Positions 33,741 through 48,656 of a stretch of DNA of 50,194 bases are shown here, piece by piece (the first letter of the stretch is position 1; each line of letters starts with the position of its first letter). The DNA is taken from positions 1-50,194 of the forward strand of contig CAINWJ010000010.1 of assembly GCA_903854455.1 (NCBI GenBank), written 5' to 3'. Made by a program: the position numbers and the translations under genes. Source of the stretch: Candidatus Peribacteria bacterium (lineage in GTDB: Bacteria; Patescibacteriota; Gracilibacteria; Peribacterales; Peribacteraceae). Under the pieces are notes generated by a model. It ran no database searches. It was not told where the DNA came from and was given only the letters and a program-made list of their open reading frames with translations.

Positions 33741-33835
33741 GAATGTAGAATGTAAAATGTACAATGTAGAATGCGCAAGCGTGTTTCGAAGGTTTATGCA
33801 ATCATTCTACATTCTAAATTCTACATTTTACATTC
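33741..33835. repeat. heptamer-array hairpin H1: (AATGTAN)x4.7, 29-nt loop, inverted (NTACATT) array
   Basis: Left arm GAATGTAGAATGTAAAATGTACAATGTAGAATG at 33741-33773. Right arm CATTCTACATTCTAAATTCTACATTTTACATTC at 33803-33835. Confidence 0.85.
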
Positions 33836-33851
33836 TGCCCATTTTCCTTCC

Positions 33852-34520
33852 GTGCGTACCTGCGCCATCATCCCCGCCTACAACGAAGCCACCCGCATAG
33901 GTGCAGTGATCCGCGGTGCGCGTCAGTATGTGGATGAGGTGATTGTTGTCATCGACGGTTCTACGGATGACTCAGCTGCGGTTGCACGGACCGAGGGTGC
34001 GCGGGTGATCGTGCATCCGGAGAACTGCGGTGCCGGGGCGGCGACCATGACCGGTCTGGAGGCGGCTCGCACATTGGGCTATGAGATTGCCATCACCGTC
34101 GATGCCGACGGACAGCACGCCACTGCAGACATCCCGAAGCTGATTGCCGCTCTGTCCGCGGGTGCCGATCTCGCCATCGCCAATCGCTTCGGGGGCAAGA
34201 AGACATCCATTCCCTTCATTCGCCGGATCTTCAATGGCATCGGCAATGCGGTGACGTTCTTCGCGACCGGCATCTGGCTTCCGGATACGCAGTGCGGGTT
34301 CAAGGCATTCGGTCCGCGTGCACTCCGTCAGGTCGATCTCCGCATGTCCGGCTTCGAGTTCTGCACCGAGATCATTCGCGAAGCCGCCCGTTTCCGGTGG
34401 AACGTGACCTCCGTTCCGTCGCGAGTGGTGTATTCTGAGTACACGCTTGCCAAGGGACAGTCCTTTGCGAGCGGCATTCACACCGCCGCCAAGATCCTCC
34501 TTAGATCCTTCCTCCGCTAA
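33852..34520 (+). CDS. family 2 glycosyltransferase (polyprenol-phosphate sugar transferase-like)
   Basis: CAIIPAYNEATRIGAVI...VIVVIDGSTDDS...TVDADGQH. The ORF-track start at 33771 translates the H1 repeat, so I propose the GTG at 33852. Confidence 0.85.
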   Translation: MRTCAIIPAYNEATRIGAVIRGARQYVDEVIVVIDGSTDDSAAVARTEGARVIVHPENCGAGAATMTGLEAARTLGYEIAITVDADGQHATADIPKLIAALSAGADLAIANRFGGKKTSIPFIRRIFNGIGNAVTFFATGIWLPDTQCGFKAFGPRALRQVDLRMSGFEFCTEIIREAARFRWNVTSVPSRVVYSEYTLAKGQSFASGIHTAAKILLRSFLR

Positions 34521-34522
34521 TC

Positions 34523-34900
34523 ATGATCATCGAGTTCACTCCGTACCAAATCATCGTTCCCATCTTCTCCATCATCATGGTGGCGTATGCCTGGAGCCTG
34601 GTCGGGCGTCAGCGCAAGACTATCTGGGAGGGCATGCTCTGGACCGTTTTCTGGCTGGGTATTGCTTATGTCGCATTCCAGCCCAATAGCCTGCAGTACT
34701 TGAGTTCGCTTACCGGCATCAAGAAGCATGAGAACGCCGCGACGTTCACGGCGATCGTCATCCTCTTCTTTACGGTGTTCTACATGGTCATCCGCATCGA
34801 GGCGCTGGAGCAGCGGTTGACGAGGGTGGTGAGGGATAAAGCATTGAAAGAAGCAGGGATTCATGGAAAGAACGGTGATTCGGAGGAATGTAAAATGTAG
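34523..34900 (+). CDS. DUF2304-like small membrane protein (usual partner of this GT2 type)
   Basis: 125 aa with 3-4 TM segments. It starts 2 nt after the GT2 stop. Its pattern and position match the GT2-DUF2304 pairing as I recall it. Confidence 0.65.
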   Translation: MIIEFTPYQIIVPIFSIIMVAYAWSLVGRQRKTIWEGMLWTVFWLGIAYVAFQPNSLQYLSSLTGIKKHENAATFTAIVILFFTVFYMVIRIEALEQRLTRVVRDKALKEAGIHGKNGDSEECKM

Positions 34901-34977
34901 AATGTATAATGTAGAATGACGTTTGTTGCTCTTGGAGTAGCGAAATTCTACATTCTACATTTTCCATTCTACATTCC
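34885..34977. repeat. heptamer-array hairpin H2
   Basis: Left arm GGAATGTAAAATGTAGAATGTATAATGTAGAATG at 34885-34918. Loop ACGTTTGTTGCTCTTGGAGTAGCGA. Right arm AATTCTACATTCTACATTTTCCATTCTACATTCC at 34944-34977. Confidence 0.85.
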
Positions 34978-34978
34978 G

Positions 34979-36172
34979 TTGCCCACTCTTCTCCTCATCT
35001 CCCCTTACTGGAAGGAAGACCACCGTTGGATGGTCAGTTCCTACAAATTGGCTGAGCTGTGGCAGAGGCTCGGGTACCGGGTGGTGGTGATGTGTATGGG
35101 ACGAACGGGGGATCAGGGACCCTTCGGCTTCGCTCAGGGCGAGTCAGGGATCAGGGATCAGGATGGGAAAAATATTCAAAATGAGCGCGAGGCTGCTGCC
35201 CCGCAGGCACCAGAAATTCACCGTATTCCTGATTTCTTCATTCCCGATCCTTGGAACTACGGCATCGCGTTTGGATTTGCGGGGAAAGCGCTGAAGCTGG
35301 CACGAGAGATCAAGCCGGATGTGATTGTTGTGAATAAAGTCTTGTTCTGGAGCTCATTCGCCTTGCTCCGTTTACGATTGGCAGGATTCAAGGTGATCCT
35401 CACGACGGATGCGCTCGTCGGCATGACGTGGTGGCCGAGGACGCGCCTCGCCAAGATCGGTGCCGCCATCTACGCATGGACGCTGGGGTGGCTGATACTC
35501 AAGGCGGCAACGCAGGTGGTGTTCTTCCATCCGCAACCCCCTACCCTCCTCCGAAAACTTGGTATCGCGGAGAAATCGATTGTTATTCCTACGGGGATTG
35601 ATGCTGCGCCTTTTTCCCTCACCCCTGACCCCTCTCCCGATGGGAGAGGGGAAGTGGTTGTTACATATATTGGGCGACTGGAATCCGTCAAAGGTGTGGA
35701 GGATTTCGTTGCGGCTGCACTGAAGGTGAAGCGGGATCATCCGGAGCTGACGGTTCAGGTGGTCGGTTGGTCGAAGAAGGATCATCCGCTGGTGGAGGCA
35801 CACAAGGATCAGGTTGTCTTCACGGGTCTGCGTCATGACATCCCGGCGATCCTGGCGGCGACGGATATCTTCGTGCTCCCGAGCTACTCGGAAGGACTCA
35901 GCAATGCGCTAATGGAGGCGATGGCAGCCGGTTGCGCGTGTATAGCAAGCGACGTCGGCGGCAATGCGTTCCTCATCCAAAACGGGATCTCAGGGTTTCT
36001 GTTCCCCACAGGAGACAGGGAAGCACTGGCAGCTCACATTCGCCGACTAGTGGAAGATCCGGCGAAGCGGGAGGCGTTAGGCAGTAGTGCTCGTAAGAGA
36101 ATCATCGAGTACTTCAGTTCGAGTGTTACTGGTAGGCAATGGAGCCGGTTGTTCGGGAGTTTCGGGAACTGA
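34979..36172 (+). CDS. family 4 glycosyltransferase (GT4-1) carrying in-frame repeat insertions
   Basis: C-terminal GT4 pattern VFTGLRHDIPAILAATDIFVLPSYSEGLSNALMEAMAAGCACIASDVGG. A TTG at 34979 gives MPTLLLISPYW. The ORF-track start at 34916 translates the H2 repeat. Confidence 0.8.
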   Translation: MPTLLLISPYWKEDHRWMVSSYKLAELWQRLGYRVVVMCMGRTGDQGPFGFAQGESGIRDQDGKNIQNEREAAAPQAPEIHRIPDFFIPDPWNYGIAFGFAGKALKLAREIKPDVIVVNKVLFWSSFALLRLRLAGFKVILTTDALVGMTWWPRTRLAKIGAAIYAWTLGWLILKAATQVVFFHPQPPTLLRKLGIAEKSIVIPTGIDAAPFSLTPDPSPDGRGEVVVTYIGRLESVKGVEDFVAAALKVKRDHPELTVQVVGWSKKDHPLVEAHKDQVVFTGLRHDIPAILAATDIFVLPSYSEGLSNALMEAMAAGCACIASDVGGNAFLIQNGISGFLFPTGDREALAAHIRRLVEDPAKREALGSSARKRIIEYFSSSVTGRQWSRLFGSFGN

Positions 36173-36406
36173 TTCATTGGGGAGGCTTTCACTCGCAATA
36201 CGCCACAGTACCTCGGCAAGGAAAGCTGACATGTCTTCGAATTCTTTGTATTGCTGACGAGCTATGGCACGGAATTTTTCCACTGCTTGTGATATGGCTT
36301 CGGCATTATGCGCCCCGGACGGCGCAGAGCTTACGTTAGAAACTTCGAGTGCTGCTTCTCTAAGTTCCTTAGAGATAGGAAACTGATTCGGGCTGAGTTT
36401 TTTCAT
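36077..36406 (-). CDS. small hypothetical protein (109 aa); its 3' end overlaps the convergent GT4-1
   Basis: ATG at 36406 with AGGAAA ~12 nt upstream. It fills a 330-nt gap between the GT4 genes. No motif recognised. Confidence 0.3.
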   Translation of the reverse strand: MKKLSPNQFPISKELREAALEVSNVSSAPSGAHNAEAISQAVEKFRAIARQQYKEFEDMSAFLAEVLWRIASESLPNESVPETPEQPAPLPTSNTRTEVLDDSLTSTTA

Positions 36407-36504
36407 GCGCTCATTATTTTCCTGCCGTTCTATACTTACAACATTTTTCTTCTACTGGTGCCAGTAAGGTCTTCCTCTCGCTACAAAGTCATAGTTCGCA
36501 TACC

Positions 36505-37641
36505 ATGCTTTCCATGAAGAGGCACCTCGTTATCCTCTCGGCTTTTCTCTTCCCCTTCCGTTCCGGTGCCGAGGCGATGGTGGAGGAGGTGTCGGTGCGG
36601 CTGACGGATGAGTTTGACGTGACGATTGTGACGGCGCGGTTGAAACGATCACTGCCGAAGCGGGATCATCTTTTACCCCCACCCCCAATCCCTCCCCCGA
36701 GTCCGCTGCGGCGGACGGTCGGGAGAGGGGAGAATGGTGTTCATGTGGTTCGTGTCGGGCTTGGCTTCTCCTTCGATAAGTATTTATTCCCGTTCCTGGC
36801 ACCGTTTGCTGTTTTGCGATTGAAGCCCGACATCATTCACGCGGTGCTGGAATCGTACGCGGGGTTGGCGTTGGTGTTCTGTAAGTGGATCGTGCCGCGG
36901 GCGAAGCGGGTTCTGACACTCCAGAGTACGAATACTTCATTGTTCTTGGGTCCCATTCACCGCTGCGCACACATCATCACCGCGATCAGTTCGGCACTCA
37001 TTGAACGGGCGAAGACGTTCGGTCGGTCGGATGTCGTGCTCATTCCAAACGGCATCGATCTCGCTGCTATCAACCGTCTGTGTACGGAGCATCCCAAGGA
37101 TTCCGGTTGCATCCTCTTCGCGGGGCGACTGGAGCCGATGAAGGGAGTGGATGTGTTGTTCCAGGCATTTGCGAAGGCGATCACCGGTCTGTCGCCGGAT
37201 ATTCATTTGCGCATCGTCGGTGGCGGATCGCAGGAGAAGATGCTCCAGGATCTCGCCAAATCTCTTGAGATCGATCATCGCGTGACGTACACCGGACGCA
37301 TCGACCATCGTGCAGTGCTCGCGGAATTTGCCCGTGCAGAAATCTTCTGCGGACTGTCGCGGAGCGAGGCGCTTGGGAATGTCTTTCTGGAAGCGCAGGC
37401 TTCGGGTTGTGCCGTGATCGCGACGAACATCGGCGGGATTCCGGAGATCGTGAAGGATCAGGAGAGCGGATTGCTTGTCCCGCCAGATGATATCGATGCT
37501 TCTGCAAAGGCGATCAAATCACTGCTGGCTGATCCCGGATTGCGTGCGAGATTGTCGATAGCAGCGAAGAAGGGGATGGAGCGGTATGATTGGCAGGTTA
37601 TTTCCATGGCTTATACAAGAGCATTATCAGGTGGTGTATGA
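36505..37641 (+). CDS. family 4 glycosyltransferase (GT4-2) carrying an in-frame repeat insertion
   Basis: ILFAGRLEPMKGVDVL...EIFCGLSRSEALGNVFLEAQASGCAVIATNIGGIPEIV. Confidence 0.85.
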   Translation: MLSMKRHLVILSAFLFPFRSGAEAMVEEVSVRLTDEFDVTIVTARLKRSLPKRDHLLPPPPIPPPSPLRRTVGRGENGVHVVRVGLGFSFDKYLFPFLAPFAVLRLKPDIIHAVLESYAGLALVFCKWIVPRAKRVLTLQSTNTSLFLGPIHRCAHIITAISSALIERAKTFGRSDVVLIPNGIDLAAINRLCTEHPKDSGCILFAGRLEPMKGVDVLFQAFAKAITGLSPDIHLRIVGGGSQEKMLQDLAKSLEIDHRVTYTGRIDHRAVLAEFARAEIFCGLSRSEALGNVFLEAQASGCAVIATNIGGIPEIVKDQESGLLVPPDDIDASAKAIKSLLADPGLRARLSIAAKKGMERYDWQVISMAYTRALSGGV

Positions 37642-37851
37642 GGAATAATTGACAGAATAATTTGGAGAGGGTTTCATATAAACATGTGTGAACTTTCTGA
37701 ACCTCCAACGCAAAAGGATCCGCTGGACGCATATCTTCAAAAAAATTTTCGTCCAACAGAACAGGATTTTGAGAGACCAAGTCCAAGGTTGGCAAACGCA
37801 ATTGAAGAAATCTTCGGTCGCCCCGCTGAATTTGCTGCAAGGTAGTTTTGC

Positions 37852-37921
37852 CTATTCGATAATCCCCCTGATCGTCTCCACACAGTGATCGACACTTTCA
37901 TTGACTAGCATGTGGTCGAAC
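37852..37921 (-). pseudogene. orphan duplicate of the last 22-23 codons plus stop of the 38071-38970 gene
   Basis: 70 nt match 38071-38140 at a constant offset of 219, with about five mismatches. It translates to FDHMLVNESVDHCVETIRGIIE*. Confidence 0.75.
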
Positions 37922-38070
37922 CCCCACCCCCTAACCCCCTCCCCCGGTGGGAGAGGGGGAATCTTTTTCGATGATCATTACAGGAAGTCATCCTTCCGTC
38001 ACTTGCCCTGAGCGAAGCTGAAGGGTCGGCGGAAAGAAGTGGATGGGGGTGGTTGAACATCAGCCGACCA

Positions 38071-38970
38071 TTATTCGATAATTCCTCTGATCGTCTCCAC
38101 ACAGTGATCGACACTTTCATTGACCAGCATGTGATCGAACAGGTGTGCGTGGGAGTCCAGGGCTTCCAGGTGTGATTTTGCATTCTTGATTTGCTCTGCG
38201 ATCTGCAGTTCGGAATCTTCACGCGAGCGCAAGCGGTGGAGTAATGCCGAGAGCATTCTGCGGTGAGATGTCCCCGGTGGGAGCAGTCCGCAGCTTAAAA
38301 TTGTCCTTCGTCCGAGAGACTTCGCCAGTCCTTCCAGAAGATGAATGTCGGTCGTGACGACGGGCAGTTTCTTCTTCTGCCAGATCAGGTCGATGTCTTT
38401 CCTGCGGTAACCCGCGCTGTACTGACCGCTGTCGGTCAACGTCGAGTGTGCGACGATCTCGCCGCTCTCGATCATTGCCTGGAACTTTGTTTCCGATACG
38501 ACAATGTGCGGTTCTGTGTGTGCGCTCTTCAGTTTGCGCGTTGTCACCATCGGTACCTGCTCCACGACGCTGGAGAACATGCTGAGCAGTGCCTTGGAGA
38601 TGGTGGTTTTGCCAACACCCGACGGTCCCGTCAGTGCCAACACGTAGGTGCGGACGGTGAAGAGTGGGGTTGCGACCGGGACCACGACTTCGTACTTGAG
38701 ATCGTTGATGAAGAGTCCGTTCTCCATTGTTCGGATCTTCCTCATTCGTGGAGCGACGATGGCTCCTATGGCAGGTGGCGCGCTCTCCGGCGTCATCTGT
38801 GCCATCACTTTCGTTCCATCTTCCTTCTCGATCAGCGCAACGGTATAGGCATCCGATCCGAAGCCTTTCGGAGGATTGTGGATGGTCGTGAAGCTCAGAA
38901 TCGTGCCGCGGAGCAGCGGAGTTTTGCTGAGAGCTTGGGTGCGGCGGTGGAGGGAAGGGATACGATCCAA
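38071..38970 (-). CDS. fusion: DUF35-like OB-fold domain (thiolase/HMGS scaffold type, no Zn ribbon) plus guanylate-kinase-like P-loop domain
   Basis: The N-terminal LRGTILSFTTIHNPPKGFGSDAYTVALIEKEDGTKVMAQMT matches the DUF35 OB pattern. The C-terminal LTGPSGVGKTTISKALL...VTTRKLK... is collinear with Gmk. The start is a TTG at 38970 and is uncertain. Confidence 0.75.
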   Translation of the reverse strand: MDRIPSLHRRTQALSKTPLLRGTILSFTTIHNPPKGFGSDAYTVALIEKEDGTKVMAQMTPESAPPAIGAIVAPRMRKIRTMENGLFINDLKYEVVVPVATPLFTVRTYVLALTGPSGVGKTTISKALLSMFSSVVEQVPMVTTRKLKSAHTEPHIVVSETKFQAMIESGEIVAHSTLTDSGQYSAGYRRKDIDLIWQKKKLPVVTTDIHLLEGLAKSLGRRTILSCGLLPPGTSHRRMLSALLHRLRSREDSELQIAEQIKNAKSHLEALDSHAHLFDHMLVNESVDHCVETIRGIIE

Positions 38971-39074
38971 TGTAGAATTTAGAATGTAGAATGTAGAATG
39001 GAAGAAGGCTGAGAAAGGTCGTTGAGCTGCATAGAAAGCATCATTTTACATTCTACATTATACATTTTACATTC
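38968..39074. repeat. heptamer-array hairpin H3
   Basis: Left arm CAATGTAGAATTTAGAATGTAGAATGTAGAATGG at 38968-39001. Right arm CATTTTACATTCTACATTATACATTTTACATTC at 39042-39074. It lies between the thiolase stop and the next gene's start. Confidence 0.85.
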
Positions 39075-39076
39075 GG

Positions 39077-40216
39077 TCAGATGCTCTCTAGCAGGTGAAT
39101 CGTGCACGTTGCCCCAACACCGCCCAAATTGTGTGCCAGGACGCGCTTGGCGTTCTGCACTTGGTTCGGGGCTTGTTTGGTGAGTTGCTTGAAGCAATCC
39201 AGCACCTGCTTTACTCCAGTGGCGCCGATGGGATGACCGCAGGCTTTGAGCCCGCCGCTCGTATTGATGGGGCAGGCACCATCGATGTCGGTATCTCCCT
39301 GTTTATACAGTTGAATGGCTTCGCCTTCGGGTGCGAATCCCATGTCCTCGAGATGGATAAGGGACGCGATGGAGAAGCAGTCGTGGAGTTCGATGGCATC
39401 GATGTCGTTTCGCTTCCAACCGGCTTCACTGAGCGCATTGGCAAATGCCGTCTTCGTGCTGGTAAATGATGTGATGCTTGCACGATCAGTCAGGCTCAGC
39501 GCTTCCGTGCCGATCTGCGATGCGGCAAGGCGAACACCGGATTCATGCTTCGTGGAAAGGATGAGAGCGGCAGCACCGTCGGTGATCGGTGAGCAGTCGA
39601 GGAGCCGCAGCGGATCGGCGACGAGAGGACTCCTAGAAATGGACGCTGCGGGGATTTCTTTCCGGAACTGCGCGTACGGATTCTTCACCGCAGCCTTGTG
39701 GGACAGCGCGGACACCAGGCTCAGATCATCACGACTGAGATTGTACTTGTGCATGTAGGCGGTCGCCGTCAGCGCGAAGATCCCCGGGAACGTGAGGCCG
39801 GAGGGTCCATCCTTCTCCGCATCCGCGGCGTGCATCAGTGCACTCGTGACCAGTTCACCCGCGACATCCGTCAATTTCTCCGCACCGATCACCAGCACCG
39901 TCTCCGCACGATTACTTTCCAGCAGTGCACAAGCTGTGTGAATCGCAATCCCACCGGATGCGCATGCGGCTTCCACTCGGAGTGCCGGAGGATGGTGCGG
40001 CAGCAAACTGGAGCAGAACGTGCCGAGGTGTGCCTGCTCCGCCGTCTCGCCACCCAGCATGTTGCCGATAACCACCGCGTCGATGTCGGTGGGCAGGATC
40101 TTGGTTGCGGCGATGGCTCCGTCCACCGCAGAGCGGATCAGATCAGCCAGGGAAAAATCCCACAGCTCGCCAAACTTGGTTTGGCCTCCTCCGAGGACGT
40201 ACACAGGTTGAAGCAT
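39077..40216 (-). CDS. acetyl-CoA acetyltransferase (thiolase), archaeal/SCP-x-like type
   Basis: 379 aa. It has the catalytic-Cys region VEAACASGGIAIH and the C-terminal GHPIGATGV...NLGGVGATC, and sits next to HMGS and DUF35-like genes. Confidence 0.88.
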   Translation of the reverse strand: MLQPVYVLGGGQTKFGELWDFSLADLIRSAVDGAIAATKILPTDIDAVVIGNMLGGETAEQAHLGTFCSSLLPHHPPALRVEAACASGGIAIHTACALLESNRAETVLVIGAEKLTDVAGELVTSALMHAADAEKDGPSGLTFPGIFALTATAYMHKYNLSRDDLSLVSALSHKAAVKNPYAQFRKEIPAASISRSPLVADPLRLLDCSPITDGAAALILSTKHESGVRLAASQIGTEALSLTDRASITSFTSTKTAFANALSEAGWKRNDIDAIELHDCFSIASLIHLEDMGFAPEGEAIQLYKQGDTDIDGACPINTSGGLKACGHPIGATGVKQVLDCFKQLTKQAPNQVQNAKRVLAHNLGGVGATCTIHLLESI

Positions 40217-40277
40217 AACGACCGCGAGAGTGTAGCGGAGAGGGAAGTGGGCGGGGATTGACGGATATAATTAATTA

Positions 40278-40625: not shown

Positions 40626-40669
40626 AACATTGGGAAAGTGAGAACAATTTAACAGGATATCTATTCATG

Positions 40670-41695: not shown

Positions 41696-41700
41696 GGGAT

Positions 41701-41733
41701 GGAATGTAGAATGTAGAATGTAGAATGTAAAAT
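41701..41733. repeat. solo heptamer array H4 (no inverted partner)
   Basis: GGAATGTAGAATGTAGAATGTAGAATGTAAAAT, in the HMGS / HAD divergent intergenic region. Confidence 0.8.
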
Positions 41734-41783
41734 TATTATTGAAAGGAGAATGGTTCGGGGAAGAATTTCTTCATTAATGAATA

Positions 41784-41870
41784 GGGGAGCAGGATTCCTT
41801 CCTGCGGCACCGCGGGTACCCTCCTTCGCCCTGCGCGGCTTCGGAAGGGCAGGGAAACCCGCTCCCCATT
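41784..41870. repeat. composite of the GCGGGT..ACCCGC hairpin family (degenerate inverted copy plus expanded forward copy)
   Basis: GGGGAGCAGGATTCCTTCCTGCGG followed by CACCGCGGGTACC...GGGAAACCCGCTCCCCATT. Confidence 0.5.
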
Positions 41871-41914
41871 CAAAAAATGGTTCCTGCATTTCTTTCTCTG
41901 CTAAGCTCATAACA

Positions 41915-42778
41915 ATGTCTCCAATCAAGCTCGTCATCCTCGACATCGATGGGGTGATCATCGGAAGGAGGAAAGGGCATAATAATCCTGTGCCATCCGG
42001 TCCTGTGACGGATCGGATCCTTGAGCTGCAGAAAAAGGGGATCATGGTCAGCTACTGCACTAATCGATCATTCAGTGGTATCGGACAGATTCTTGAGAGC
42101 ACACAATCCAATGGTGTTCACATTGTTGATGGGGGTGCGATTCTGTTTGATGCCGGTAAACATGCGCCGACAGTGCAGCATATCATTGATCCTGTTGATG
42201 TTTCAGCTGCCATTGATTTCAGCGAGCGACATCAGGCGCATATCGAGGTTTATATTCTCGATCGGTATTTCATTCAGAGGAGCCAAAGCACTTCTATCAT
42301 TGTTCCTGAACATTCGCGGATTCTGGGTCAGGAGCCCGAGGTCGTGTCCTCACTTGCCGATGTGGCTACCCGATATCCCGTCGTTCGGATTCTCGCCGTT
42401 CTTCCTGATCAACAATCATCGGAGCAATTTACTGCGGACTGGAAATCGGAAGGATTGAGTGCGTCCCTGCATTGGGGAGTGCATCCGACACTGCTGCCGC
42501 ATCAGTTTGGTGTCATCACAGCGACGGGTGTTTCCAAAAAGAAAGGAATGTGTGAGCTGTTGGCACAAGCCGGTGTTTCCAGTGATCAGACTCTTGGCAT
42601 CGGAGATTGGATATCAGATTGGGAGTTCATGGAGGAATGCGGCTATGTGGGTGCGATGGGTAATGCAAATGATGAACTCAAGGAGAAGGTGAAGACTAAA
42701 GGTGACGGTCATTTCGTCATCGGTGGTGATGTGGATGAGGATGGGATTCTGAAGATTCTGGATCATTTCGGGGTGTGA
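41915..42778 (+). CDS. HAD-superfamily hydrolase, Cof-type (IIB) phosphatase
   Basis: MSPIKLVILDIDGVII (DxD motif I) ... GIGDWISDWEFMEECGYVGAMGNAND (motif IV). I use the ATG at 41915, because the upstream ORF part translates repeats. Confidence 0.8.
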   Translation: MSPIKLVILDIDGVIIGRRKGHNNPVPSGPVTDRILELQKKGIMVSYCTNRSFSGIGQILESTQSNGVHIVDGGAILFDAGKHAPTVQHIIDPVDVSAAIDFSERHQAHIEVYILDRYFIQRSQSTSIIVPEHSRILGQEPEVVSSLADVATRYPVVRILAVLPDQQSSEQFTADWKSEGLSASLHWGVHPTLLPHQFGVITATGVSKKKGMCELLAQAGVSSDQTLGIGDWISDWEFMEECGYVGAMGNANDELKEKVKTKGDGHFVIGGDVDEDGILKILDHFGV

Positions 42779-42841
42779 TTGTTGTCGAGGCGTTCGTAGA
42801 GCCACAACATTTTGCGGATCTACACATGTTTTATTTTTTTT

Positions 42842-42864
42842 GAGACGCCCCGGCGGGGCGTCTC
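42842..42864. repeat. palindrome GAGACGCCCCGGCGGGGCGTCTC (same family as in the paralog array)
   Basis: Read directly. Preceded by a T-run and located between the convergent HAD and HMGR genes. Confidence 0.8.
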
Positions 42865-42876
42865 TATTCTTGAATG

Positions 42877-42951
42877 CACCGCGGGTCGGGAGACCCGCTC
42901 CCAAATTTCAATTATCTTGGATTCACCGCGGGTAGGAAACCCGCTCCCCAA
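42877..42951. repeat. two direct copies of hairpin repeat CACCGCGGGT-aggaa-ACCCGCTCCCCAA
   Basis: Copies at 42877-42904 and 42924-42951. A third copy lies at 45230-45256. Confidence 0.75.
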
Positions 42952-42967
42952 GGTATTTTACCTCAAT

Positions 42968-44161
42968 TTATCGAGCCAAATTTTTATGTGCTTTTGCCAG
43001 ATCGTGACTTGCCTGTGCAGCGAGGACGGAAACCTCTCCGGCTAACACCGCTGCCGCGATCGATTCCGCCAATTGCTTCTTGAGTGACAATCCTCCGCGA
43101 TTCTTGAGGAGCAGATTCAAGCATTGATTTTGTGCAGGGAGCGCAGTGCCTCCACCACGCACACCGACAAGAATGGCAGGCAATCGTACGCTGATCTCCA
43201 AGCTCGAAGGTAGACTTGCCCTGAGCGTAGTCGAAGAGCCGCTTACCGTCGTATCTGCCAGTGATCCTTCCACCACATGCGCGGCATCCTGTCCGGTTGC
43301 CAGGTACAGAGCTGCGATGATGTTGGCAACGTGAAGGTTTGCCCCAATTGCTCCTGCGAGCGTTGAACCGGCTTTCAGTTTGGCATCGGCAGTAGCGAGC
43401 ATGGCTTCCGGTGTCGACTTCAGAACGTCGGTGATCGTCTCCGCTGACAAGATTGTGCTTGCTGTGACTTCCATTCCTCGTCCGCGGTCGTGCGTCCGGC
43501 GGCTCGGCTTCTTGTCCGAGTCGACATTGCCCGCGATGGTCGGACATGCGATGCCTGGGTTACTCCCTGTCACCCAATCGGCAATCGCCTGCGCCGCGAT
43601 GGTCGTCATGTTCATACCCATGGCTTCGCTGGTATCACAGGCGATCGTCAGGAACACGTACTTCTTCTGGATGTCGATGTCGTAACTGAGGATTTTCAGA
43701 TGATTGCTCGTCGCTTCCGCGACCGCTTTCCACTTTCCTTCATTCCCGCGGAGAAGCTGGACGATGGCATCGAGAGAGGCGGATTGATTTCCGGGTGTAA
43801 ACGCAATCGAGCGCGTCATGCCGTGATCAATCGATTTCGTAATAGTGACTCCGCTCACCGATGCAGCCTTACAGCCGCGGTTCACGCTCGCTACCAGCGC
43901 ACCTTCCGTCGTGGCGAGTGGCAAGTGGATTTCCGAGAGCTGATTATTGGAGAACGTCACTTTGAGCGGACCTGCGTACCCTACGGGCACCGGCACCACG
44001 CCGAACATTTGCTCGCAGTTCTTCTTCTCCGATTCTCCCACAACCGATTCCACGGGTGCCGTATTCTTCAAATCAATCTTGAGCTCGCGTTCGATGAGTG
44101 TGCGGCGCTGGTTGATGCGCTGGAAGCTGCTGAGCTGCTCTGGTAGAGATCGAAGATCCAT
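42968..44161 (-). CDS. hmgA: HMG-CoA reductase, class I
   Basis: PLATTEGALVASVNRGCKA, EAMGMNM and GNVDSDKKPS match class I signatures. I use the ATG at 44161 (MDLRSLPEQ), because the ORF-track extension translates the H5 repeat. Confidence 0.9.
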   Translation of the reverse strand: MDLRSLPEQLSSFQRINQRRTLIERELKIDLKNTAPVESVVGESEKKNCEQMFGVVPVPVGYAGPLKVTFSNNQLSEIHLPLATTEGALVASVNRGCKAASVSGVTITKSIDHGMTRSIAFTPGNQSASLDAIVQLLRGNEGKWKAVAEATSNHLKILSYDIDIQKKYVFLTIACDTSEAMGMNMTTIAAQAIADWVTGSNPGIACPTIAGNVDSDKKPSRRTHDRGRGMEVTASTILSAETITDVLKSTPEAMLATADAKLKAGSTLAGAIGANLHVANIIAALYLATGQDAAHVVEGSLADTTVSGSSTTLRASLPSSLEISVRLPAILVGVRGGGTALPAQNQCLNLLLKNRGGLSLKKQLAESIAAAVLAGEVSVLAAQASHDLAKAHKNLAR

Positions 44162-44184
44162 TTTGATGAGAGAGGAGACGAGGG

Positions 44185-44218
44185 TGAATGTAGAATGTAA
44201 AATGTAGAATGTAAAATG
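44185..44218. repeat. solo heptamer array H5 (no inverted partner)
   Basis: TGAATGTAGAATGTAAAATGTAGAATGTAAAATG, in the HMGR / MVK divergent intergenic region. Confidence 0.8.
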
Positions 44219-44252
44219 CCTGGATACGGTACTCTTCTTTGCCAATGATCTC

Positions 44253-45221
44253 ATGACTTCTCCAGTGACTGTTTCAGCGCCGGGCAAACTCATGCTCTTC
44301 GGTGAGCATGCGGTTCTCTTCGGTCAGCCGTGCATCGTGACGGCGGTCGGGCAACGGATGCAGGCGACGGTGACGTTGATCGATGAGCCGATGTTTGAAC
44401 TGGAGGCGCCGGATGTGAAGGTGACGGGATACAGCAAGAAGATTAGTGAGATCGGGACAGGAGAGATTCCCAAGGGTGCCAAGTTCGTCGAGCAGGCGGT
44501 CAAGAATTTCATCGCGAAGTTCGGCAATCTTAAAGGTGGTATTCGCATTGCAACGAAGTCCGAATTCTCATCCGAGTTCGGGTTCGGTTCATCGTCAGCG
44601 TCGACGGTTTGCGTGATCGGCGCGTTGTTGCAATTAACCAAAGGGATGATCGATCCTCGCGCCGTCTTCGATCTCGCGTACAAGACCGTTCTGGATATTC
44701 AGGGCAAGGGTTCCGGTTACGACATCGCTTCGGCGGTCTTCGGCGGAACATTGCTTTACCAGGCTGGAGGTAAGGTAATCGAGCCTATCGACGTGAAAGA
44801 GATTCCGCTGATCATCGGTTACAGTGGCATCAAGTATGAGACGGTGAAGGTGATCGACGAGGTGAAGAGGCGGCATGATCGGCATCCGGAGATGATCGAC
44901 GGAGTGTATCGATCGATTGGCGCATTGATCCCAGCTGCGCTTCAAGCATTGAAGCAACCGGATTGGGTGCGGCTGGGTGAACTGATGGATATGAATCAGG
45001 GATTCCTGGAAGTGCTGGGTGTCAGCAATCTCAAGTTGTCATCAATGATTCATGCGGCGCGCGAAGCGGGAGCGCTGGGTGCGAAGATTTCGGGGTCGGG
45101 AAAAGGAGATTGCATGATAGGGGTCGGGGTCAGGGTCGGGGTCAGGGAGGCTATAGAAAGAACCGGAGGGAAGGTGATAGATGTGTCGTGTAATGTTGAA
45201 GGGTTGAGGATTGAGGCATAA
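44253..45221 (+). CDS. mvk: mevalonate kinase (GHMP family)
   Basis: SAPGKLMLFGEHAVLFGQP (the GEHAV motif is typical of MVK), the GHMP motif EFGFGSSSAST, and C-terminal GAKISGSGKGDC. Confidence 0.88.
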   Translation: MTSPVTVSAPGKLMLFGEHAVLFGQPCIVTAVGQRMQATVTLIDEPMFELEAPDVKVTGYSKKISEIGTGEIPKGAKFVEQAVKNFIAKFGNLKGGIRIATKSEFSSEFGFGSSSASTVCVIGALLQLTKGMIDPRAVFDLAYKTVLDIQGKGSGYDIASAVFGGTLLYQAGGKVIEPIDVKEIPLIIGYSGIKYETVKVIDEVKRRHDRHPEMIDGVYRSIGALIPAALQALKQPDWVRLGELMDMNQGFLEVLGVSNLKLSSMIHAAREAGALGAKISGSGKGDCMIGVGVRVGVREAIERTGGKVIDVSCNVEGLRIEA

Positions 45222-45229
45222 TCCTTTTT

Positions 45230-45256
45230 CCCGCGGGTAGGAAACCCGCTCCCCAA
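45230..45256. repeat. hairpin repeat CCCGCGGGT-aggaa-ACCCGCTCCCCAA
   Basis: Directly after the mvk stop. Same family as 42877-42951. Confidence 0.75.
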
Positions 45257-45286
45257 TCATTAACTTCGGAAATCCCTCTAGCATCT

Positions 45287-46261
45287 ATGCCCAAAGCTAC
45301 CTCCATCGCACCGACGAACATTGCGTTCATCAAGTACATGGGCAGGAAGGACGAGGCTCTACGATTGCCGGAGAATGCAAGTGTATCCATGTGTCTCGAT
45401 CACCTGCTTACGACGACGACGGTCGAATTTTCTCCGACATTGACGCTGGACAGTATTACCATCAATGGTGAACAAGAGGATGGAGAGGCAAGTCGTGTCA
45501 TCAAACACTTGGACCGCATCCGGAAGCTTGCGAAGATCGATCATCGAGCGAAGGTGGTAAGCCAGAACAATTTTCCGACGGGTACCGGGCTCTCATCATC
45601 TTCATCGGGATTTGCCGCACTGACGCTTGCCGGTTGCAAGGCCGCAGGATTGGATTTGAATCAACGTGAACTTTCGATTCTCGCTCGTCAGGGATCCGGC
45701 TCCGCTTGCCGGTCGGTTCCTGACGGATTCGTTGAGTGGGGCGATGCCGATACTAGTGAGGAATCGTACGGGAAGACGATTTTTGCGCCGGATCATTGGG
45801 ACATCGCCGATGTCGTCGCCATCGTGAGTACTGGACGTAAGACAGTGAAAAGTTCTACCGCACATCAATCCGTCGTTGACGGTCCGTATTATCGTACGCG
45901 GATCAATCGCATGGCGGAGAAGGTGCAGCGGTGCAAAGAATTAATTCTTGCGAAGGATTTTCTTTCGTTCGGTACGTTGTGTGAGGAGGAGGCAATGGAT
46001 CTCCATGTGATTTTTATGAGTGCAGGGATCATTTACCTGACTCCGCAGAGCTTGGAGCTCATCAAGCTGGTGCCGCAGTGGCGCGCGGAAGGATTACCTG
46101 TTTATTTCACGCTCAATACCGGTCAGGATGTTCATCTTTTATGTGAGAAGAAGGACGCGAAGGTGGTGCAGGACAAGCTGAAAGGATTGGATTTCGTGCG
46201 GGAGGTGATCGTGAATGAGCCAGGGAAGGGCGCAAGAATGAGCGCAAAGCATCTGTTTTAA
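45287..46261 (+). CDS. mvaD: diphosphomevalonate decarboxylase (GHMP family)
   Basis: APTNIAFIKYMGRKD...NNFPTGTGLSSSSSGFAAL...ARQGSGSACRSV. From sequence alone I cannot distinguish it from a phosphomevalonate decarboxylase. Confidence 0.85.
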   Translation: MPKATSIAPTNIAFIKYMGRKDEALRLPENASVSMCLDHLLTTTTVEFSPTLTLDSITINGEQEDGEASRVIKHLDRIRKLAKIDHRAKVVSQNNFPTGTGLSSSSSGFAALTLAGCKAAGLDLNQRELSILARQGSGSACRSVPDGFVEWGDADTSEESYGKTIFAPDHWDIADVVAIVSTGRKTVKSSTAHQSVVDGPYYRTRINRMAEKVQRCKELILAKDFLSFGTLCEEEAMDLHVIFMSAGIIYLTPQSLELIKLVPQWRAEGLPVYFTLNTGQDVHLLCEKKDAKVVQDKLKGLDFVREVIVNEPGKGARMSAKHLF

Positions 46262-46368
46262 TGATATTGATTGTGCCGCGCAAAGCATTGCGCTCCCTAT
46301 TATTCAAGAAAAAGCATTGCCCTCCCCATTCAAGAAAAAGGAGCAGAATGCTTTCTGCGGATTACCAA

Positions 46369-47247
46369 TCAAATCACCAATATCATTCCTCCTCCTCCCG
46401 TTCTCGCCCCTGCGCCCAGGACTTTTCCGGCACCATCTTTCGCTTCAATCTCCGCAATGATTTTCCGCGCTTCCGGCGTTACGACGCCCAGTGCCATTTG
46501 AGCGCGGTGGTGATCGCGCATTACGGTTTTCAGTGATTCTCCGGCGATGATGCGTTCGGTACATTTGCCGATGGTTTCAATGGCTTCACGTACGGATCCG
46601 GGAAGCGGCGTCCCGGCTGCGGAAAGTGGAAATGATTCATAGTTCGATCGCACCCACGCTACCAGCTCAGGCGTCGTCTCATTTGGCGTGCCCGTGTCGA
46701 TTAAACGCGAATCGACAAGAAGATTCGTCGGAAGATTTATTGCTTTCGGCGGGGAACCTTTCTTGAACAAGATCGGTTTCTCTTCCCAGATGACTGCGAA
46801 ATCCAGTCCGCTGTGACCGGGATTAACGGCGTCTTCGATTTTCAAGGCTGTGTCACGGCAATCTTCTCCAAGGAGGCAACGGCACAGCGCGATCACAAGT
46901 GCGGTCGAGGAGCCCATGCCTTTCCGCAGCGGAAGACTGGATTCGATTCGGAGTATTCCTTGCAGGTGATCATTGCGATGCTTCAGTGCCAGTACCGCTA
47001 TTTTATTTGCATAATCAATCCATGGATTTGGAGTATTTGGCCACTCTATCGTGACACTGGGTTTCCCAATTCCCAATTCCCAATTCCCAATTCCTTCGAA
47101 TGTTACCGTCATTCTCTCCTTCGATGGCACTGCGATTCCCGGTTTGCCGAATACGACGGCGTACTCACCGCTCAGGATTATTTTCCCGCAGGCGGAAGCT
47201 CGGTTTACTGGTTTGGTGGTTTGGTGGTTTGGTGGTTTGGTTCTCAT
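46369..47247 (-). CDS. GHMP kinase, phosphomevalonate kinase-like
   Basis: CGKIILSGEYAVVFGKPG (GEYAV is typical of PMK rather than MVK), LRKGMGSSTALV and GAGARTGGGG. It is short (292 aa) and carries two tandem-repeat tracts. Confidence 0.7.
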   Translation of the reverse strand: MRTKPPNHQTTKPVNRASACGKIILSGEYAVVFGKPGIAVPSKERMTVTFEGIGNWELGIGKPSVTIEWPNTPNPWIDYANKIAVLALKHRNDHLQGILRIESSLPLRKGMGSSTALVIALCRCLLGEDCRDTALKIEDAVNPGHSGLDFAVIWEEKPILFKKGSPPKAINLPTNLLVDSRLIDTGTPNETTPELVAWVRSNYESFPLSAAGTPLPGSVREAIETIGKCTERIIAGESLKTVMRDHHRAQMALGVVTPEARKIIAEIEAKDGAGKVLGAGARTGGGGMILVI

Positions 47248-47262
47248 GGTGAACGGTGTGCA

Positions 47263-47973
47263 TTATGAGCCGAACCTTCTTTTCCGTCTCTCGAATTCAT
47301 TCACCGCTTCATCCAGATCTTTTGGTCCGACGTCGGGAAATAGTTTCGGTGAGAAGATCCACTCGGCGTACGTCGACTGCCAGAGGAAAAAGTTGCTGGT
47401 GCGTTGCTCACCGGAGGAACGGAAGATGAGGTCGATATCAGGTAATTCCGGATGATCAAGATTCGGTCGGATGAAGTCGCTGGTCGGCTGGTCGGCTGGT
47501 CGGCTGGTCGCTTTCGTCGTCGCACGGAGGATCTCATCTTTGCCGCCGTAATCGACAGCCAGGTGCAGTGTGAATTCCATTTGATCTTTCGTCAGCTCCT
47601 CCGTTTCTTCGATCAATTTCTTGAGTGATGGCGGGATGCGGTCACGGCGGCCGGAGTGCACGAAGCGGGTTTTTTCTTTCAAGAATGTCTCACCTTCCTT
47701 TCGCAAATACTTCTCGAGCATCCCCATCAACATTTCGATCTCTTTCGGATCGCGTTTCCAGTTTTCGGTCGAGAAGCACCAGACGGTCAGCACCGAGATC
47801 CGCGGATCCTTGCGGCACCACTCGGTCAACGTGCGGAAATTTTCTACTGCCTGCTCATGGCCTTTCCAGACACTCTCGAACTTGTGCGCTTTCGCCCAGC
47901 GGCGGTTGCCGTCGGGGATGATGGCGAGGTGGAGGCGGGAAAGAGTTGGTGGATGAGTCGACATGCTCGGCAA
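47263..47973 (-). CDS. uppS: cis-prenyltransferase (undecaprenyl diphosphate synthase family)
   Basis: HLAIIPDGNRRWAK...FSTENWKR...DLIFRSSGEQRTSNFFLWQSTYAEW. Confidence 0.92.
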   Translation of the reverse strand: MPSMSTHPPTLSRLHLAIIPDGNRRWAKAHKFESVWKGHEQAVENFRTLTEWCRKDPRISVLTVWCFSTENWKRDPKEIEMLMGMLEKYLRKEGETFLKEKTRFVHSGRRDRIPPSLKKLIEETEELTKDQMEFTLHLAVDYGGKDEILRATTKATSRPADQPTSDFIRPNLDHPELPDIDLIFRSSGEQRTSNFFLWQSTYAEWIFSPKLFPDVGPKDLDEAVNEFERRKRRFGS

Positions 47974-48010
47974 TAGTAATGGTTACATGGTTGAATGGCT
48001 AAATGGTTTG
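47967..48010. repeat. octamer array AATGGTTA CATGGTTG AATGGCTA AATGGTTT between uppS and idi
   Basis: Read directly. Same unit as at 25790-25878. Confidence 0.6.
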
Positions 48011-48037
48011 GTGCTGTCCAATCAATGGTTGCTTTTT

Positions 48038-48559
48038 CTATCCATTTAAAATTTTCAGGAGTCCAATCTTCAGCCAGAGAGCGAAGAAGTCGGGATACTT
48101 CTCGAAATCCCGCAGGAGACTCTGTACATCGATCCATTTCCACGCTTTGACTTCATCGGGATCGGGACGAACAACGACGCCTTTCTCCGCTGTTCCGATC
48201 AATGTCGTGACATGCTCATACTCACTACCTTTTCCATCCGGATCTTTCGCCTGGTAGACGAAGGACGGACCGGGTGTGAGTGGGACTGAGAATCCCAGTT
48301 CTTCCTTGAGCCTCCTCTGACCGGCGGCAATCATTTCCTCCTGCTCATAAGGATGGCTACAGCACGTATTCGCCCAGATTTCCGGGAACAACATCTTCTT
48401 GGTGCTGCGCTGCTGGATGATCAGCGAGGATTTGTCGGGAGAGAAGACATACACCGAGAATGCGCGGTGCAACTTCCCTTCACCGGTGTGCGCGGCGACG
48501 ATCTCCATCGTTCCGGTTTGATGATTCTGCTCGTCGACAAGGATGACGTGGCGGGACAT
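48038..48559 (-). CDS. idi: isopentenyl-diphosphate delta-isomerase, type 1 (Nudix)
   Basis: HRAFSVYVF...WANTCCSHP...AAGQRRLKEELG...YEHV. Confidence 0.9.
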   Translation of the reverse strand: MSRHVILVDEQNHQTGTMEIVAAHTGEGKLHRAFSVYVFSPDKSSLIIQQRSTKKMLFPEIWANTCCSHPYEQEEMIAAGQRRLKEELGFSVPLTPGPSFVYQAKDPDGKGSEYEHVTTLIGTAEKGVVVRPDPDEVKAWKWIDVQSLLRDFEKYPDFFALWLKIGLLKILNG

Positions 48560-48563
48560 GGAC

Positions 48564-48656
48564 GGAATGTAGAATTGAAAATGTAAAATGTAAAATTACG
48601 CTACTCCGAAAGCAGCAAAGATCATTCTACATTTTACATTCTACATTTTACATTTC
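48564..48656. repeat. heptamer-array hairpin H6
   Basis: Left arm GGAATGTAGAATTGAAAATGTAAAATGTAAAAT at 48564-48596. Loop TACGCTACTCCGAAAGCAGCAAAGAT. Right arm CATTCTACATTTTACATTCTACATTTTACATTTC at 48623-48656. Confidence 0.85.

Follow-up and report, generated by a model that had tools for sequence, protein, structure and literature searches.

The repeats described here lie in contig CAINWJ010000010.1 of a Candidatus Peribacteria bacterium, a small uncultivated groundwater organism (assembly GCA_903854455.1), which is referred to as the window over its whole length of 50,194 nt. They are for the most part palindromes of 90-105 bp at gene junctions, with arms made of tandem copies of the heptamer AATGTAN. 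To our knowledge, bacteria of the Candidate Phyla Radiation (CPR) are not culturable, and almost nothing is known about how their transcription starts and stops. According to Pfam matches, the neighbours of the arrays are genes for glycosyltransferases, a DUF2304 protein, UppS, a Nudix protein and an Hcp-like protein, together with an archaeal-type mevalonate pathway consisting of thiolase, an HMG-CoA synthase-like protein (HMGCS-like), DUF35, HMG-CoA reductase (HMGR), GHMP kinases and a decarboxylase. The first half of the window contains Cys-rich paralogues of ~560 aa, TrmB-like regulators, a TraG/VirD4-like ATPase and iscS-iscU.

The hairpin family is real, non-random and not previously described for Peribacteria. 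Reading of the sequence and three independent detectors agree on ten arms of 32 nt, (AATGTAN)4AATG, at six loci, named H1 to H6 (L and R denote left and right arms). An earlier note on this DNA had reported ten arms at six loci; all of them are present, and the arm can now be given a fixed length of 32 nt. The loci are as follows.

H1, hairpin, arms 33742-33773 and 33803-33834, loop 33774-33802, between the stop of a 1028-aa open reading frame (ORF) (33711) and the GTG start of a GT2 gene (33853)
H2, hairpin, arms 34887-34918 and 34944-34975, with an inner loop stem GTTGCTC-TTG-GAGTAGC
H3, hairpin, arms 38969-39000 and 39042-39073, between two minus-strand genes
H4, 41703-41733, minus strand, single arm in the gap between the divergent HMGCS-like and HAD genes
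H5, 44187-44218, minus strand, single arm in the gap between the divergent HMGR and mevalonate kinase genes
H6, hairpin, arms 48566-48596 and 48623-48654, in the gap between the divergent Nudix and Hcp genes

The arms are fitted closely to the adjacent genes. The loop of H1 begins with CGCAAGCG at its 5' end, and its right arm presents TACATT toward the GT2 gene at a distance of 18 nt. The left arm of H2 includes the DUF2304 stop codon TAG (34898-34900) and overlaps the final 14 nt of that ORF, while the right arm ends 3 nt from the TTG start of a GT4 gene (34979), a start that is backed by the N-termini of relatives. The right arm of H3 is 3 nt from the thiolase stop (39077). Its left arm overlaps by 2 nt the TTG start (38970), fixed by aligning relatives, of an ORF that combines DUF35 and guanylate kinase (DUF35-Gmk), and a mutated unit of this arm, TAAATT, stands 5 nt before that TTG. 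On the minus strand, H4 reads TTTACA-N17-TACATT, CCATCCC and then the GTG of the HMGCS-like gene (41695); H5 reads TTTACA-N17-TACATT, a 25-nt C/T-rich leader and then the reductase ATG (44161); and the left arm of H6 reads TACATT-CCGTCC-ATG (Nudix, 48559). The right arm of H6 is directed at Hcp (annotated ATG 48746). The overlaps of H2L and H3L refine the claim of the earlier note that all copies are intergenic.

Several lines of evidence show that these arrays are not accidental. Shuffled sequence would yield 0.09 matches to the two-unit pattern AATGTANAATGTA with at most one mismatch; the window has 29, none of them outside 33.7-48.7 kb. These matches lie in the second part of the window, as had been proposed, although an octamer hairpin of the same build does occur in the first 33 kb, at 25790-25879. 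Tandem Repeats Finder (TRF) and an inverted-repeat finder return the same arrays, with arms that are 84-92% complementary and loops of 27-42 nt. RNA folding, one of the checks suggested earlier, gives -28 to -43 kcal/mol for the hairpins, with z-scores of -4.5 to -8.4. Positions 45268-49362, including H6, are found at 100% identity in two independent ENA metagenome assemblies (L121 and L122; related loci, genomes and assemblies are given by L numbers throughout), and the exact UppS protein of the window is present in several ENA metagenome assemblies. The identical 4 kb with H6 rules out an assembly artefact, which the earlier note had raised, as well as a planted sequence. Since the independent assemblies are identical, the hairpin loci are not hypermutable. 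A search with (AATGTAN)4 also located hairpins of the AATGTAN type in the Peribacteraceae and Peregrinibacteria metagenome-assembled genomes L028, L060, L064, L073 and L120.

The arms obey strict rules. In 28 Peribacteria-type arms, with the units numbered inward from the outer end, 89%, 75%, 75%, 96% and 4% of units 1 to 5 are perfect, and 0% of unit 0, outside the arm. Because unit perfection stops at both edges, the arm can be defined as (AATGTAN)4 plus AATG, with sharp ends and a fixed length of 32 nt. Mutations fall mainly in units 2 and 3 (42/56 perfect, against 52/56 for units 1 and 4; Fisher p = 0.019), and units 1 and 4 hold the would-be -10 and -35 positions. Within the unit, positions 1-6 are conserved and position 7 is free, in agreement with the earlier description of a variable seventh base. 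Between the two arms of a hairpin, the bases at position 7 can pair in 17/50 cases, where chance predicts 17.6. It follows that the arms are neither recent inverted copies nor kept for perfect pairing, and that the hexamers are conserved rather than the stem; hairpin pairing as the selected feature was rejected on this ground. The suggestion of an RNA structure in 5' untranslated regions is, in the form in which it was made, unlikely on the same count, and also because several arms overlap a start codon or end just 3-7 nt 5' of one.

The order of the arms is equally strict. In all fetched loci taken together, opposite-sense arm pairs less than 200 nt apart are AATGTAN-first in 32 cases and in the reverse order in none (p = 5e-10). 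TACATT therefore always points outward, and the outward reading of every arm is CATT(NTACATT)4. Anatomy, fixed length and orientation rule are direct observations. They support the view that the arms are sequence-constrained and not slippage noise, since they have a constant 4.5 units, with a conserved hexamer and a free position 7; the earlier denial that this is an independently arising microsatellite is borne out on the same features.

The relatives used for comparison are metagenome contigs syntenic with the window, in which the HMG-CoA reductase homologues are 54-72% identical; the genome of the window is not the same as that of any relative fetched. In ~1 Mb of their orthologous regions AATGTAN arms are almost absent (the exceptions are L134 and L143), and on that ground the AATGTAN family is lineage-specific, again a matter of direct observation. 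Conservation of AATGTAN at orthologous sites, one of the checks that had been proposed, is thus rejected, although array-type elements with other 7-8-mer units are kept at the same junctions. Overall, a dispersed, lineage-specific palindromic repeat family with fixed-length heptamer arrays is well supported.

The outermost unit of the arms has a counterpart in the promoters of related genomes. In 0.92 Mb of related loci, 14.6% of TACAAT and 12% of TATAAT hexamers lie 5-10 nt before the first start of ORFs of at least 100 codons, compared with 1-4% of control hexamers, and the distance to the start codon peaks at 6 and 9 nt. A box-to-start geometry of 6-9 nt is that described for leaderless genes by GeneMarkS-2 (PMC6028130). 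In Peribacteria, gene starts of the leaderless type, with a TACAAT or TATAAT box 6-9 nt ahead of the start codon, seem to be the norm. Repeat-free genes of the window have the same pattern: TATAAT-N6-ATG (18247), TACTAT-N6-ATG (7975) and TTGACA-N16-TACATT-N8-ATG (25004). It was also noted that upstream regions in Peribacteria (loci L123-L202; window starts 18247, 7975, 8825 and 25004) are C/T-rich (CTTCC, TCCCC) and lack Shine-Dalgarno purines.

At three orthologous junctions the box of the relatives can be compared with the arm of the window.

Nudix junction: relatives L124-126 have TACAAT-gcagcc-ATG; the window has TACATT-ccgtcc-ATG, in the outermost unit of H6L
HMGCS-like junction: L123, L129 and L131 have TACAAT-N9-ATG; the window has TACATT-ccatccc-GTG at H4
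HMG-CoA reductase junction: about 12 relatives have TACAAT-N7-9-ATG; the window has H5 and then the 25-nt C/T-rich leader

That the outermost unit coincides with the -10 box of relatives was missed by the earlier note, and this positional equivalence is likewise observed directly. The arms of L060 read TACATT-N6-ATG and TACATT-N5-ATG. In the window, the -10-like box is 6 nt from the start codon at H6L, 7 nt at H4 and 5 nt at H3L (TAAATT); like the 6 and 5 nt of L060, these distances were taken to agree with the 6-9-nt spacing, whereas the 3 nt of H2R do not. H1R and H5 imply leaders of ~10-18 nt, and similar C/T-rich leaders follow those arms that are 17-27 nt from a start. Because 3 x 7 + 2 = 23, TT(T/C)ACA lies exactly 17 bp 5' of the last TACATT. 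A consensus scanner finds TTTACA-17-TACATT (9/12) in H3R, H4, H5 and H6L, in all cases outward, while 6.6-33% of comparable arrays also pass. Seven of the ten arms face a gene start, both single arms among them, and every hairpin has at least one such arm.

The best explanation offered by these data is that the palindromes are built from iterated -10-like boxes and act as outward promoter modules, and as hairpin cassettes at same-direction junctions. It is held tentatively, with a probability that is appreciable yet below even. Each arm would be an iterated form of the -10 box of the lineage (TACAAT/TACATT), and would serve as an outward sigma-70-type promoter. Where the start codon follows after 5-7 nt, the mRNA that it drives would be leaderless; elsewhere the mRNA would have a short leader of 17-27 nt, rich in C and T. 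In a gap between divergent genes, one gene would be served by a single arm and both by an inverted pair; between same-direction genes, an inverted pair might restart transcription for the downstream gene, while the 32-bp imperfect stem could end, process or insulate the upstream transcript. The elements would belong to a broader, fast-turnover class of ~32-nt arrays of 7-8-mers, which probably arise by slippage from local seeds and then spread or are retained at gene junctions. Promoter activity, and any role of the hairpins in termination or processing, are inferred.

Two further sets of observations are needed to weigh this explanation: the loops of the hairpins, and a sister family with octamer arms. 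The loops of H2 and H6 are homologous in opposite orientation, as had been claimed, with 21/27 matches and a common inner stem; this loop type was not found in the other genomes searched. The loop type of H1 is more widespread. CGCAAGCG adjoins the inner arm end in at least 13 hairpins of other Peribacteria species, or at least 13 of its 88 occurrences overall, and falls within detected loops 8 times against 0.13 expected. It is found in H1, in the AATGTAC-armed hairpin of L143 and in at least 11 octamer-armed hairpins of other species (more than 8 species). As an observation on its own, a loop module CGCAAGCG(A/G)AA...TGCATGCA abuts the inner arm end in many species regardless of the arm unit, and occurs at the following sites.

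Window: 33774-33781
L128: 5594
L129: 1313
L130: 6502
L131: 2642, 5157 and 9936
L143: 2808
L157: 3349
L161: 12302
L163: 5716
L170: 6984
L028: 5674

The octamer hairpins form a second family across Peribacteria, with arms of the AATGGCTA, AATTGCTA and CATGGTTA types. They are numerous in L028, L128-131, L157, L161 and L170, at junction types similar to those of the AATGTAN hairpins. Examples from the window and relatives are given below.

Window 25790-25879: sister hairpin, octamer arms of AATGGCTA x ~4 and the inverse, between the cysteine desulfurase and IscU/NifU genes, both on the minus strand
Window 47978-48008, minus strand: single octamer array of AATGGTTA type, ~4 units, directly 5' of a TACTAT box and the UppS ATG (47964)
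L028 5623-5712: octamer hairpin
L131 9901-9992 and 16106-16190: octamer hairpins
L161 12268-12361: octamer hairpin

A considerable number of points weigh against the promoter explanation. Firstly, the sigma-70 rule is passed by 6.6% of all hexamer+N arrays and by 33% of those whose hexamer has five A/T; the sigma-70 match as proof of a promoter was rejected, being non-significant when all hexamer arrays are enumerated. The opposite strand of every arm has better -10-like hexamers (TAGAAT, TAAAAT), so the direction of an arm is unreadable from the letters alone. Secondly, individual arms fit poorly: H1L, H2L and H3R face the 3' end of the adjacent gene, H2R stops just 3 nt short of the start codon, and the key A is missing from its second unit, TCCATT; between H6R and the annotated start of Hcp there are 91 nt. 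Any insertion into a tiny intergenic gap would likewise end up close to start and stop codons. Thirdly, gene-context statistics in other phyla do not favour promoters. Single AATGTAN arms are in convergent gaps in 22 cases and in divergent gaps in 10, and in same-direction gaps the AATGTAN sense prevails by 23:13; this classification was automatic, is rough because ORFs run through the arms, and serves for cross-phylum tendencies only. Finally, the octamer-armed sister hairpins agree in loop motif and in position at junctions but bear no likeness to a -10 box, so a common role of all hairpins cannot rest on promoter likeness. The hairpins can be regarded as a homologous superfamily in which the loop is conserved and the arms change; a copied element or a structural role would account for this at least as readily as a promoter.

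Upstream of HMGR in L147 and L179 there is a junction hairpin with AAATGGA-type arms and a perfect TATAAT in its loop, so that, to judge by this box, the promoter seems to lie between the arms and not within them.

The main rival holds that the palindrome is a selfish repeat, similar to repetitive extragenic palindromes (REP) and the mosaic elements (BIME) that they form, to Correia elements or to a miniature inverted-repeat transposable element (MITE). The arm-loop-arm unit would be copied by a transposase or by recombination and persist where it is harmless, the promoter features being incidental or occasionally exploited. This is unlikely to be the correct explanation, though it deserves serious weight. 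Inverted repeats of 32 nt around a short non-coding core, a loop of 25-41 nt, are found at four loci, and homologous copies that include the core do occur at unrelated sites, as shown by H2/H6 and by the CGCAAGCG set; such shared loops at non-orthologous sites are what copying would produce. The near-absence of AATGTAN from ~1 Mb of relatives suits a selfish repeat too, as do the same-size arrays in frame within protein loops, which recall Rickettsia palindromic elements (RPE). Across phyla, hairpins are in same-direction, convergent and divergent gaps in the ratio 15:4-5:4, close to genomic proportions. The earlier proposal of a copied, MITE-like unit is upheld to this extent by the homologous loops. 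No target-site duplication was seen at H1-H6 or in L028, L060, L064, L073 and L120, where the flanks only extend the palindrome (GG...CC), and no transposase or REP-associated tyrosine transposase (RAYT)-like gene was recognised among the ORFs of the 50-kb window. Nor was a filled/empty site pair seen: the only contigs of the same species are identical, and relatives at ~70% protein identity have other sequence at the site. The orthologous junctions of relatives are not empty but occupied, either by other arrays or by a plain promoter. Copies have diverged instead of being near-identical, and the arms of a hairpin differ at position 7 as much as unrelated arms, which speaks against recent inverted copies. 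The retention of the hexamer while position 7 drifts implies purifying selection or constant homogenisation.

Another rival places the action at the RNA level. The transcribed hairpin might itself be the functional element, either terminating or attenuating transcription, or offering a site for RNase III processing, or stabilising 3' ends, a role that REP plays in malE-malF; alternatively, single-stranded repeats might be recognised in the mRNA. Two motifs might then be relevant: MazF toxins of Firmicutes cleave at the pentad UACAU, and AUG-UAG and AUG-UAA each pair a start with a stop. An explanation at the RNA level is quite improbable. It would account for the very stable folds and for the fact that same-direction genes, among them iscS-iscU, flank H1, H2, H3 and the 25.8-kb hairpin. 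It would also suit the arm order, since on either strand an A-rich arm comes first and a U-rich arm second, as bidirectional terminators have them. The loops of H6 and H2 have a small G+C stem, followed in H6 by a U-rich run, and covarying arms with a conserved loop motif across species are expected of structured RNA. However, position-7 pairing at chance means that pairing is not maintained, single arms are unable to form a hairpin, and H4, H5 and H6 are between divergent genes, where there is no upstream transcript to end. The elements also fail as intrinsic terminators: the main stems are A+T-rich with a mismatch at every 7th pair, and their base lacks a G+C-rich stem with a U-tract after it; the terminator scan flagged only the small inner stem of the H6 loop. 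In Rfam, the sole match at gathering score was a tRNA, and the E-value mode returned sub-threshold microRNA-precursor look-alikes on H2 only; a known RNA family was rejected as the identity of the hairpins, none of which has an Rfam match.

The 7-bp unit invites a further alternative, in which a protein that recognises AATGTA every 7 bp coats the arms and either regulates promoters or organises DNA. Candidates would be a ribbon-helix-helix (RHH) dimer like omega of pSM19035, or a protein of the ToxR or H-NS type as at the TTTTGAT heptads of ctxAB. This, too, must be considered improbable. Six kept positions and one free position per 7-bp unit, with a fixed unit number, are features of such operators. 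The arms occur in direct and convergent arrangements only, and omega on heptads reportedly prefers these arrangements. The arrays overlap the promoter region of adjacent genes, as do the documented promoter heptads of ctxAB (bioRxiv 10.1101/2021.05.14.444153), and octamer arrays, with the 8-bp period of MetJ boxes, occupy equivalent sites. The earlier idea of iteron-like binding sites is of this kind, and no candidate protein goes with it. Among the ORFs of the window neither an RHH domain nor anything comparable was seen, the only regulators being three TrmB-like proteins far from the arrays. Units at the same junction differ completely between related species, so that every lineage would need a binder evolving along with them, and from genome to genome the downstream genes have no function in common. 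The search of the 50-kb window ORFs for genes of transposases, RHH proteins or MazF near the elements gave none.

Neutral microsatellites, in which AT-rich heptamers slip up to a ceiling of ~32-35 nt and recur by chance or from common seeds without function, are very improbable, for although period 7 dominates in all fetched loci, array lengths pile up at 30-35 nt with a sharp cut-off, AATGTAN is matched in frequency by control AT-rich heptamer+N arrays in viral contigs and heptamers are the most abundant long simple repeats (Mrazek 2007, as far as it is relayed in PMC4679880), pure slippage would yield identical units and not a varying position 7 beside six kept ones, the copy number is invariant between independent assemblies, the order of inverted pairs is strictly 32:0, loops are shared by different hairpins, and ten arms of one unit within 15 kb stand against 0.09 expected.

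AATGTAN arrays extend well beyond Peribacteria. Arrays of at least 4 units were found in Bacteroidota, Clostridia, Cyanobacteria, CPR and viral contigs, with five units being commonest and the hairpin order the same; 5-unit hairpins are also found in Bacteroidota, Gammaproteobacteria, Kiritimatiellae and others. In viral contigs, control AT-rich heptamer+N arrays number 85, 48 and at least 120, compared with 77 for AATGTAN. A cross-phylum mobile element defined by AATGTAN is weakened by this comparison. Because control heptamers are equally frequent, the cross-phylum cases are treated as convergent, and a convergent origin across phyla is the more economical view.

The earlier note also missed that the AATGTAN family is one member of a wider class of ~32-nt arrays of 7-8-mers. 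This is evident at the thiolase-to-DUF35 junction, the site of H3.

Window: AATGTAN hairpin
L126: TGAATTA / TCATAAT hairpin
L125: ACTTACGC array
L129 and L131: CCTAAGT-type arrays
L123: none

Upstream of HMGR, relatives have arrays or hairpins with at least 12 different units. Period 7 dominates among the tandem arrays of two sets of fetched loci (249/493 and 104/296). In the fetched loci, arrays of periods 7 and 8 have two length modes, of which the second lies at 30-35 nt and breaks off sharply on its upper side, whereas periods 6, 9, 10 and 12 lack this pattern. Many of the period-7 and period-8 units have an AATT or AATG core in common.

Arrays of the same size also occur inside genes. Positions 47063-47094, 47209-47241 and 47479-47510 of the window are 100%-perfect arrays of 32-33 nt, in frame within coding sequence. 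A GHMP/phosphomevalonate-kinase-like gene contains TTCCCAA x4.6 and TGGTTTGG x4.1, and in UppS GCTGGTCG x4 encodes ATSRPADQPTSD, the Pfam match not being lengthened. The in-gene arrays of UppS and GHMP kinase are present in independent public assemblies as well. In many Peribacteria, the same surface loop of HMG-CoA reductase is coded by a different perfect heptamer array in each species, while the length of the loop is constant. The arrays in this loop are at ~+360 nt (alignment columns 121-155) in L152, L161, L169, L184, L186, L139 and L176, with the units AATTGTC, TTCCGAA, AATGCAA, AGAATGC, GTCTCAC and others. Further in-gene arrays of HMGR were noted at ~+930-1070 nt.

A close comparison is offered by L131 and L129, two genomes that are ~90% identical. 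At the same site within a GT4 gene, L131 has (CTTGAAG)4 (15421-15451) and L129 has GCTTGCC x2 plus GCTTATC x2 (15163-15197). The site is free of indels; the two genomes share just a GCTT core and the 3' flank there. To judge from this alignment, the difference looks like replacement of a whole array and not like stepwise slippage. It is tempting to speculate that Peribacteria, and perhaps many phyla, have a length-preserving and length-limited process that overwrites unconstrained junctions and protein loops with ~32-nt patches of 7-8-mers, and that the AATGTAN hairpins are its products, seeded by -10 boxes and domesticated as promoter-insulator cassettes; in this full form the proposal is decidedly unlikely to be right. 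The junction and protein-loop arrays of ~32 nt are nevertheless the part most likely to hold something new.

Searching the literature with the repeat sequence gave irrelevant primer matches only, and the published description of a Peribacteria genome makes no mention of these elements. The combination of features set out above is not described in the literature searched. Several known systems share part of it.

The Correia repeat-enclosed elements, which are MITEs of Neisseria, are intergenic palindromes of 100-155 bp that carry outward promoter elements in their inverted ends. Their transcript hairpins are cut by RNase III, and they are dispersed at gene junctions and lineage-specific. The AATGTAN elements resemble them as short, lineage-specific palindromes at junctions, with outward promoters proposed here from the position of the boxes. 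Correia elements have unique 26-bp ends, a TA target duplication and hundreds of near-identical copies, whereas the AATGTAN elements have 4.5-unit array arms, diverged copies and no duplication that could be found. REP and BIME of enterobacteria and pseudomonads are known to stabilise the mRNA upstream of them, to cause pausing or termination of transcription and to be bound by gyrase or IHF. They, too, are imperfect palindromes with arms of similar size, placed between genes or within operons, in species-specific families. However, REPs are G+C-rich single palindromes of ~35 nt without tandem periodicity and are mobilised by RAYT, in contrast to the A+T-rich periodic arrays described here, for which no RAYT was seen in the window.

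The dispersed heptamers, namely the cyanobacterial short tandemly repeated repetitive sequences (STRR), the long simple sequence repeats of Mrazek (LSSR) and TAACTGA of Beggiatoaceae, are also tandem 7-nt units at many intergenic loci. The window arrays have these features and share a unit between loci, with a length mode at 30-35 nt. Heptamers of the TAACTGA type occur in 2-6 copies, often a few nt 5' of starts without a Shine-Dalgarno sequence (MacGregor 2015, PMC4679880), and the same heptamer unit is found in distant phyla without a known transfer mechanism (PMC4679880). TAACTGA differs in forming 169 direct sets and one indirect set, in lying sense-upstream and in having a proposed role in translation (PMC4679880). 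The AATGTAN arrays, in contrast, have a free position 7, a fixed 4.5 units, inverted pairs, a common loop and the coincidence with the -10 box.

Operator arrays such as omega WATCACW of pSM19035, the 8-bp metboxes of MetJ and ctxAB TTTTGAT are similar in placing direct or convergent 7-8-bp units over promoters. In these systems one dimer binds each unit cooperatively, and the cognate protein and a small regulon are known. For AATGTAN, in contrast, no candidate binder was recognised in the window, the units change between relatives at the same junction and the downstream genes are unrelated. Lastly, Rickettsia palindromic elements and Borg repeats lie both between genes and, in frame, in surface loops of proteins, and evolve fast and independently in related genomes (PMC9879509). 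The likeness to both rests on the ~32-nt perfect arrays in the UppS, GHMP kinase and HMGR loops. Borg units within ORFs are divisible by three and variable in copy number, while those described here are of 7-8 nt with a near-constant array length; RPEs are palindromes of 100-150 bp and not arrays.

If the arms are promoters, they would provide a testable rule for Peribacteria, in which a -10 box placed 6-9 nt from the start is iterated to a 32-nt array and mirrored so that adjacent genes are served or insulated. Few examples of promoters that are multiplied and moved in the form of repeat elements would be as clear, and the arms would tie old, unexplained dispersed heptamers (STRR, LSSR, TAACTGA) to a concrete sequence function. 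Regardless of function, the presence of different ~32-nt arrays at the same junctions and in the same protein loops points to a strong, poorly understood mutational process in small genomes, one that also affects gene calling and protein annotation.

The link of the repeats to envelope and isoprenoid genes, which the earlier note had emphasised, probably reflects no more than a gene-dense stretch, as arms in other Peribacteraceae precede unrelated genes (nusB-like in L060). A regulon of envelope and isoprenoid genes was rejected on this ground. Within the isoprenoid genes, the DUF35-Gmk ORF (38071-38970, minus strand) fuses DUF35/OB-fold and guanylate kinase domains in a single frame, and the fusion is kept in relatives (59-61% identity, 299 aa). 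DUF35 is the partner of thiolase and HMGCS in the archaeal-type pathway.

Some other features of the window are worth recording. Between 25 and 17771 there is a series of paralogues of ~550-600 aa with the N-terminus M(P/T)xC(P/T)xCxSAFE, which are presumably the Cys-rich proteins recorded for Peribacteria. The three TrmB-like regulators are interspersed among them, and the TraG/VirD4-like coupling ATPase follows at 19127-21370. A perfect G+C-rich palindrome, GACGCCCCGGCGGGGCGTC, is repeated at 14273-14291, 16079-16097 and 42844-42862, with a half copy near 10701. Two of its copies are just 5' of Cys-rich paralogue genes and are followed by TCTACACCACCCAACGT-ATG, while the third is in the convergent gap between HAD and HMGR, with a T-run before it; it looks like a separate REP-like or terminator element. 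Finally, an AAGCGAT x4.6 array is situated directly after the stop codon of the Hcp-like gene (49370-49401) and is followed by a T-run.

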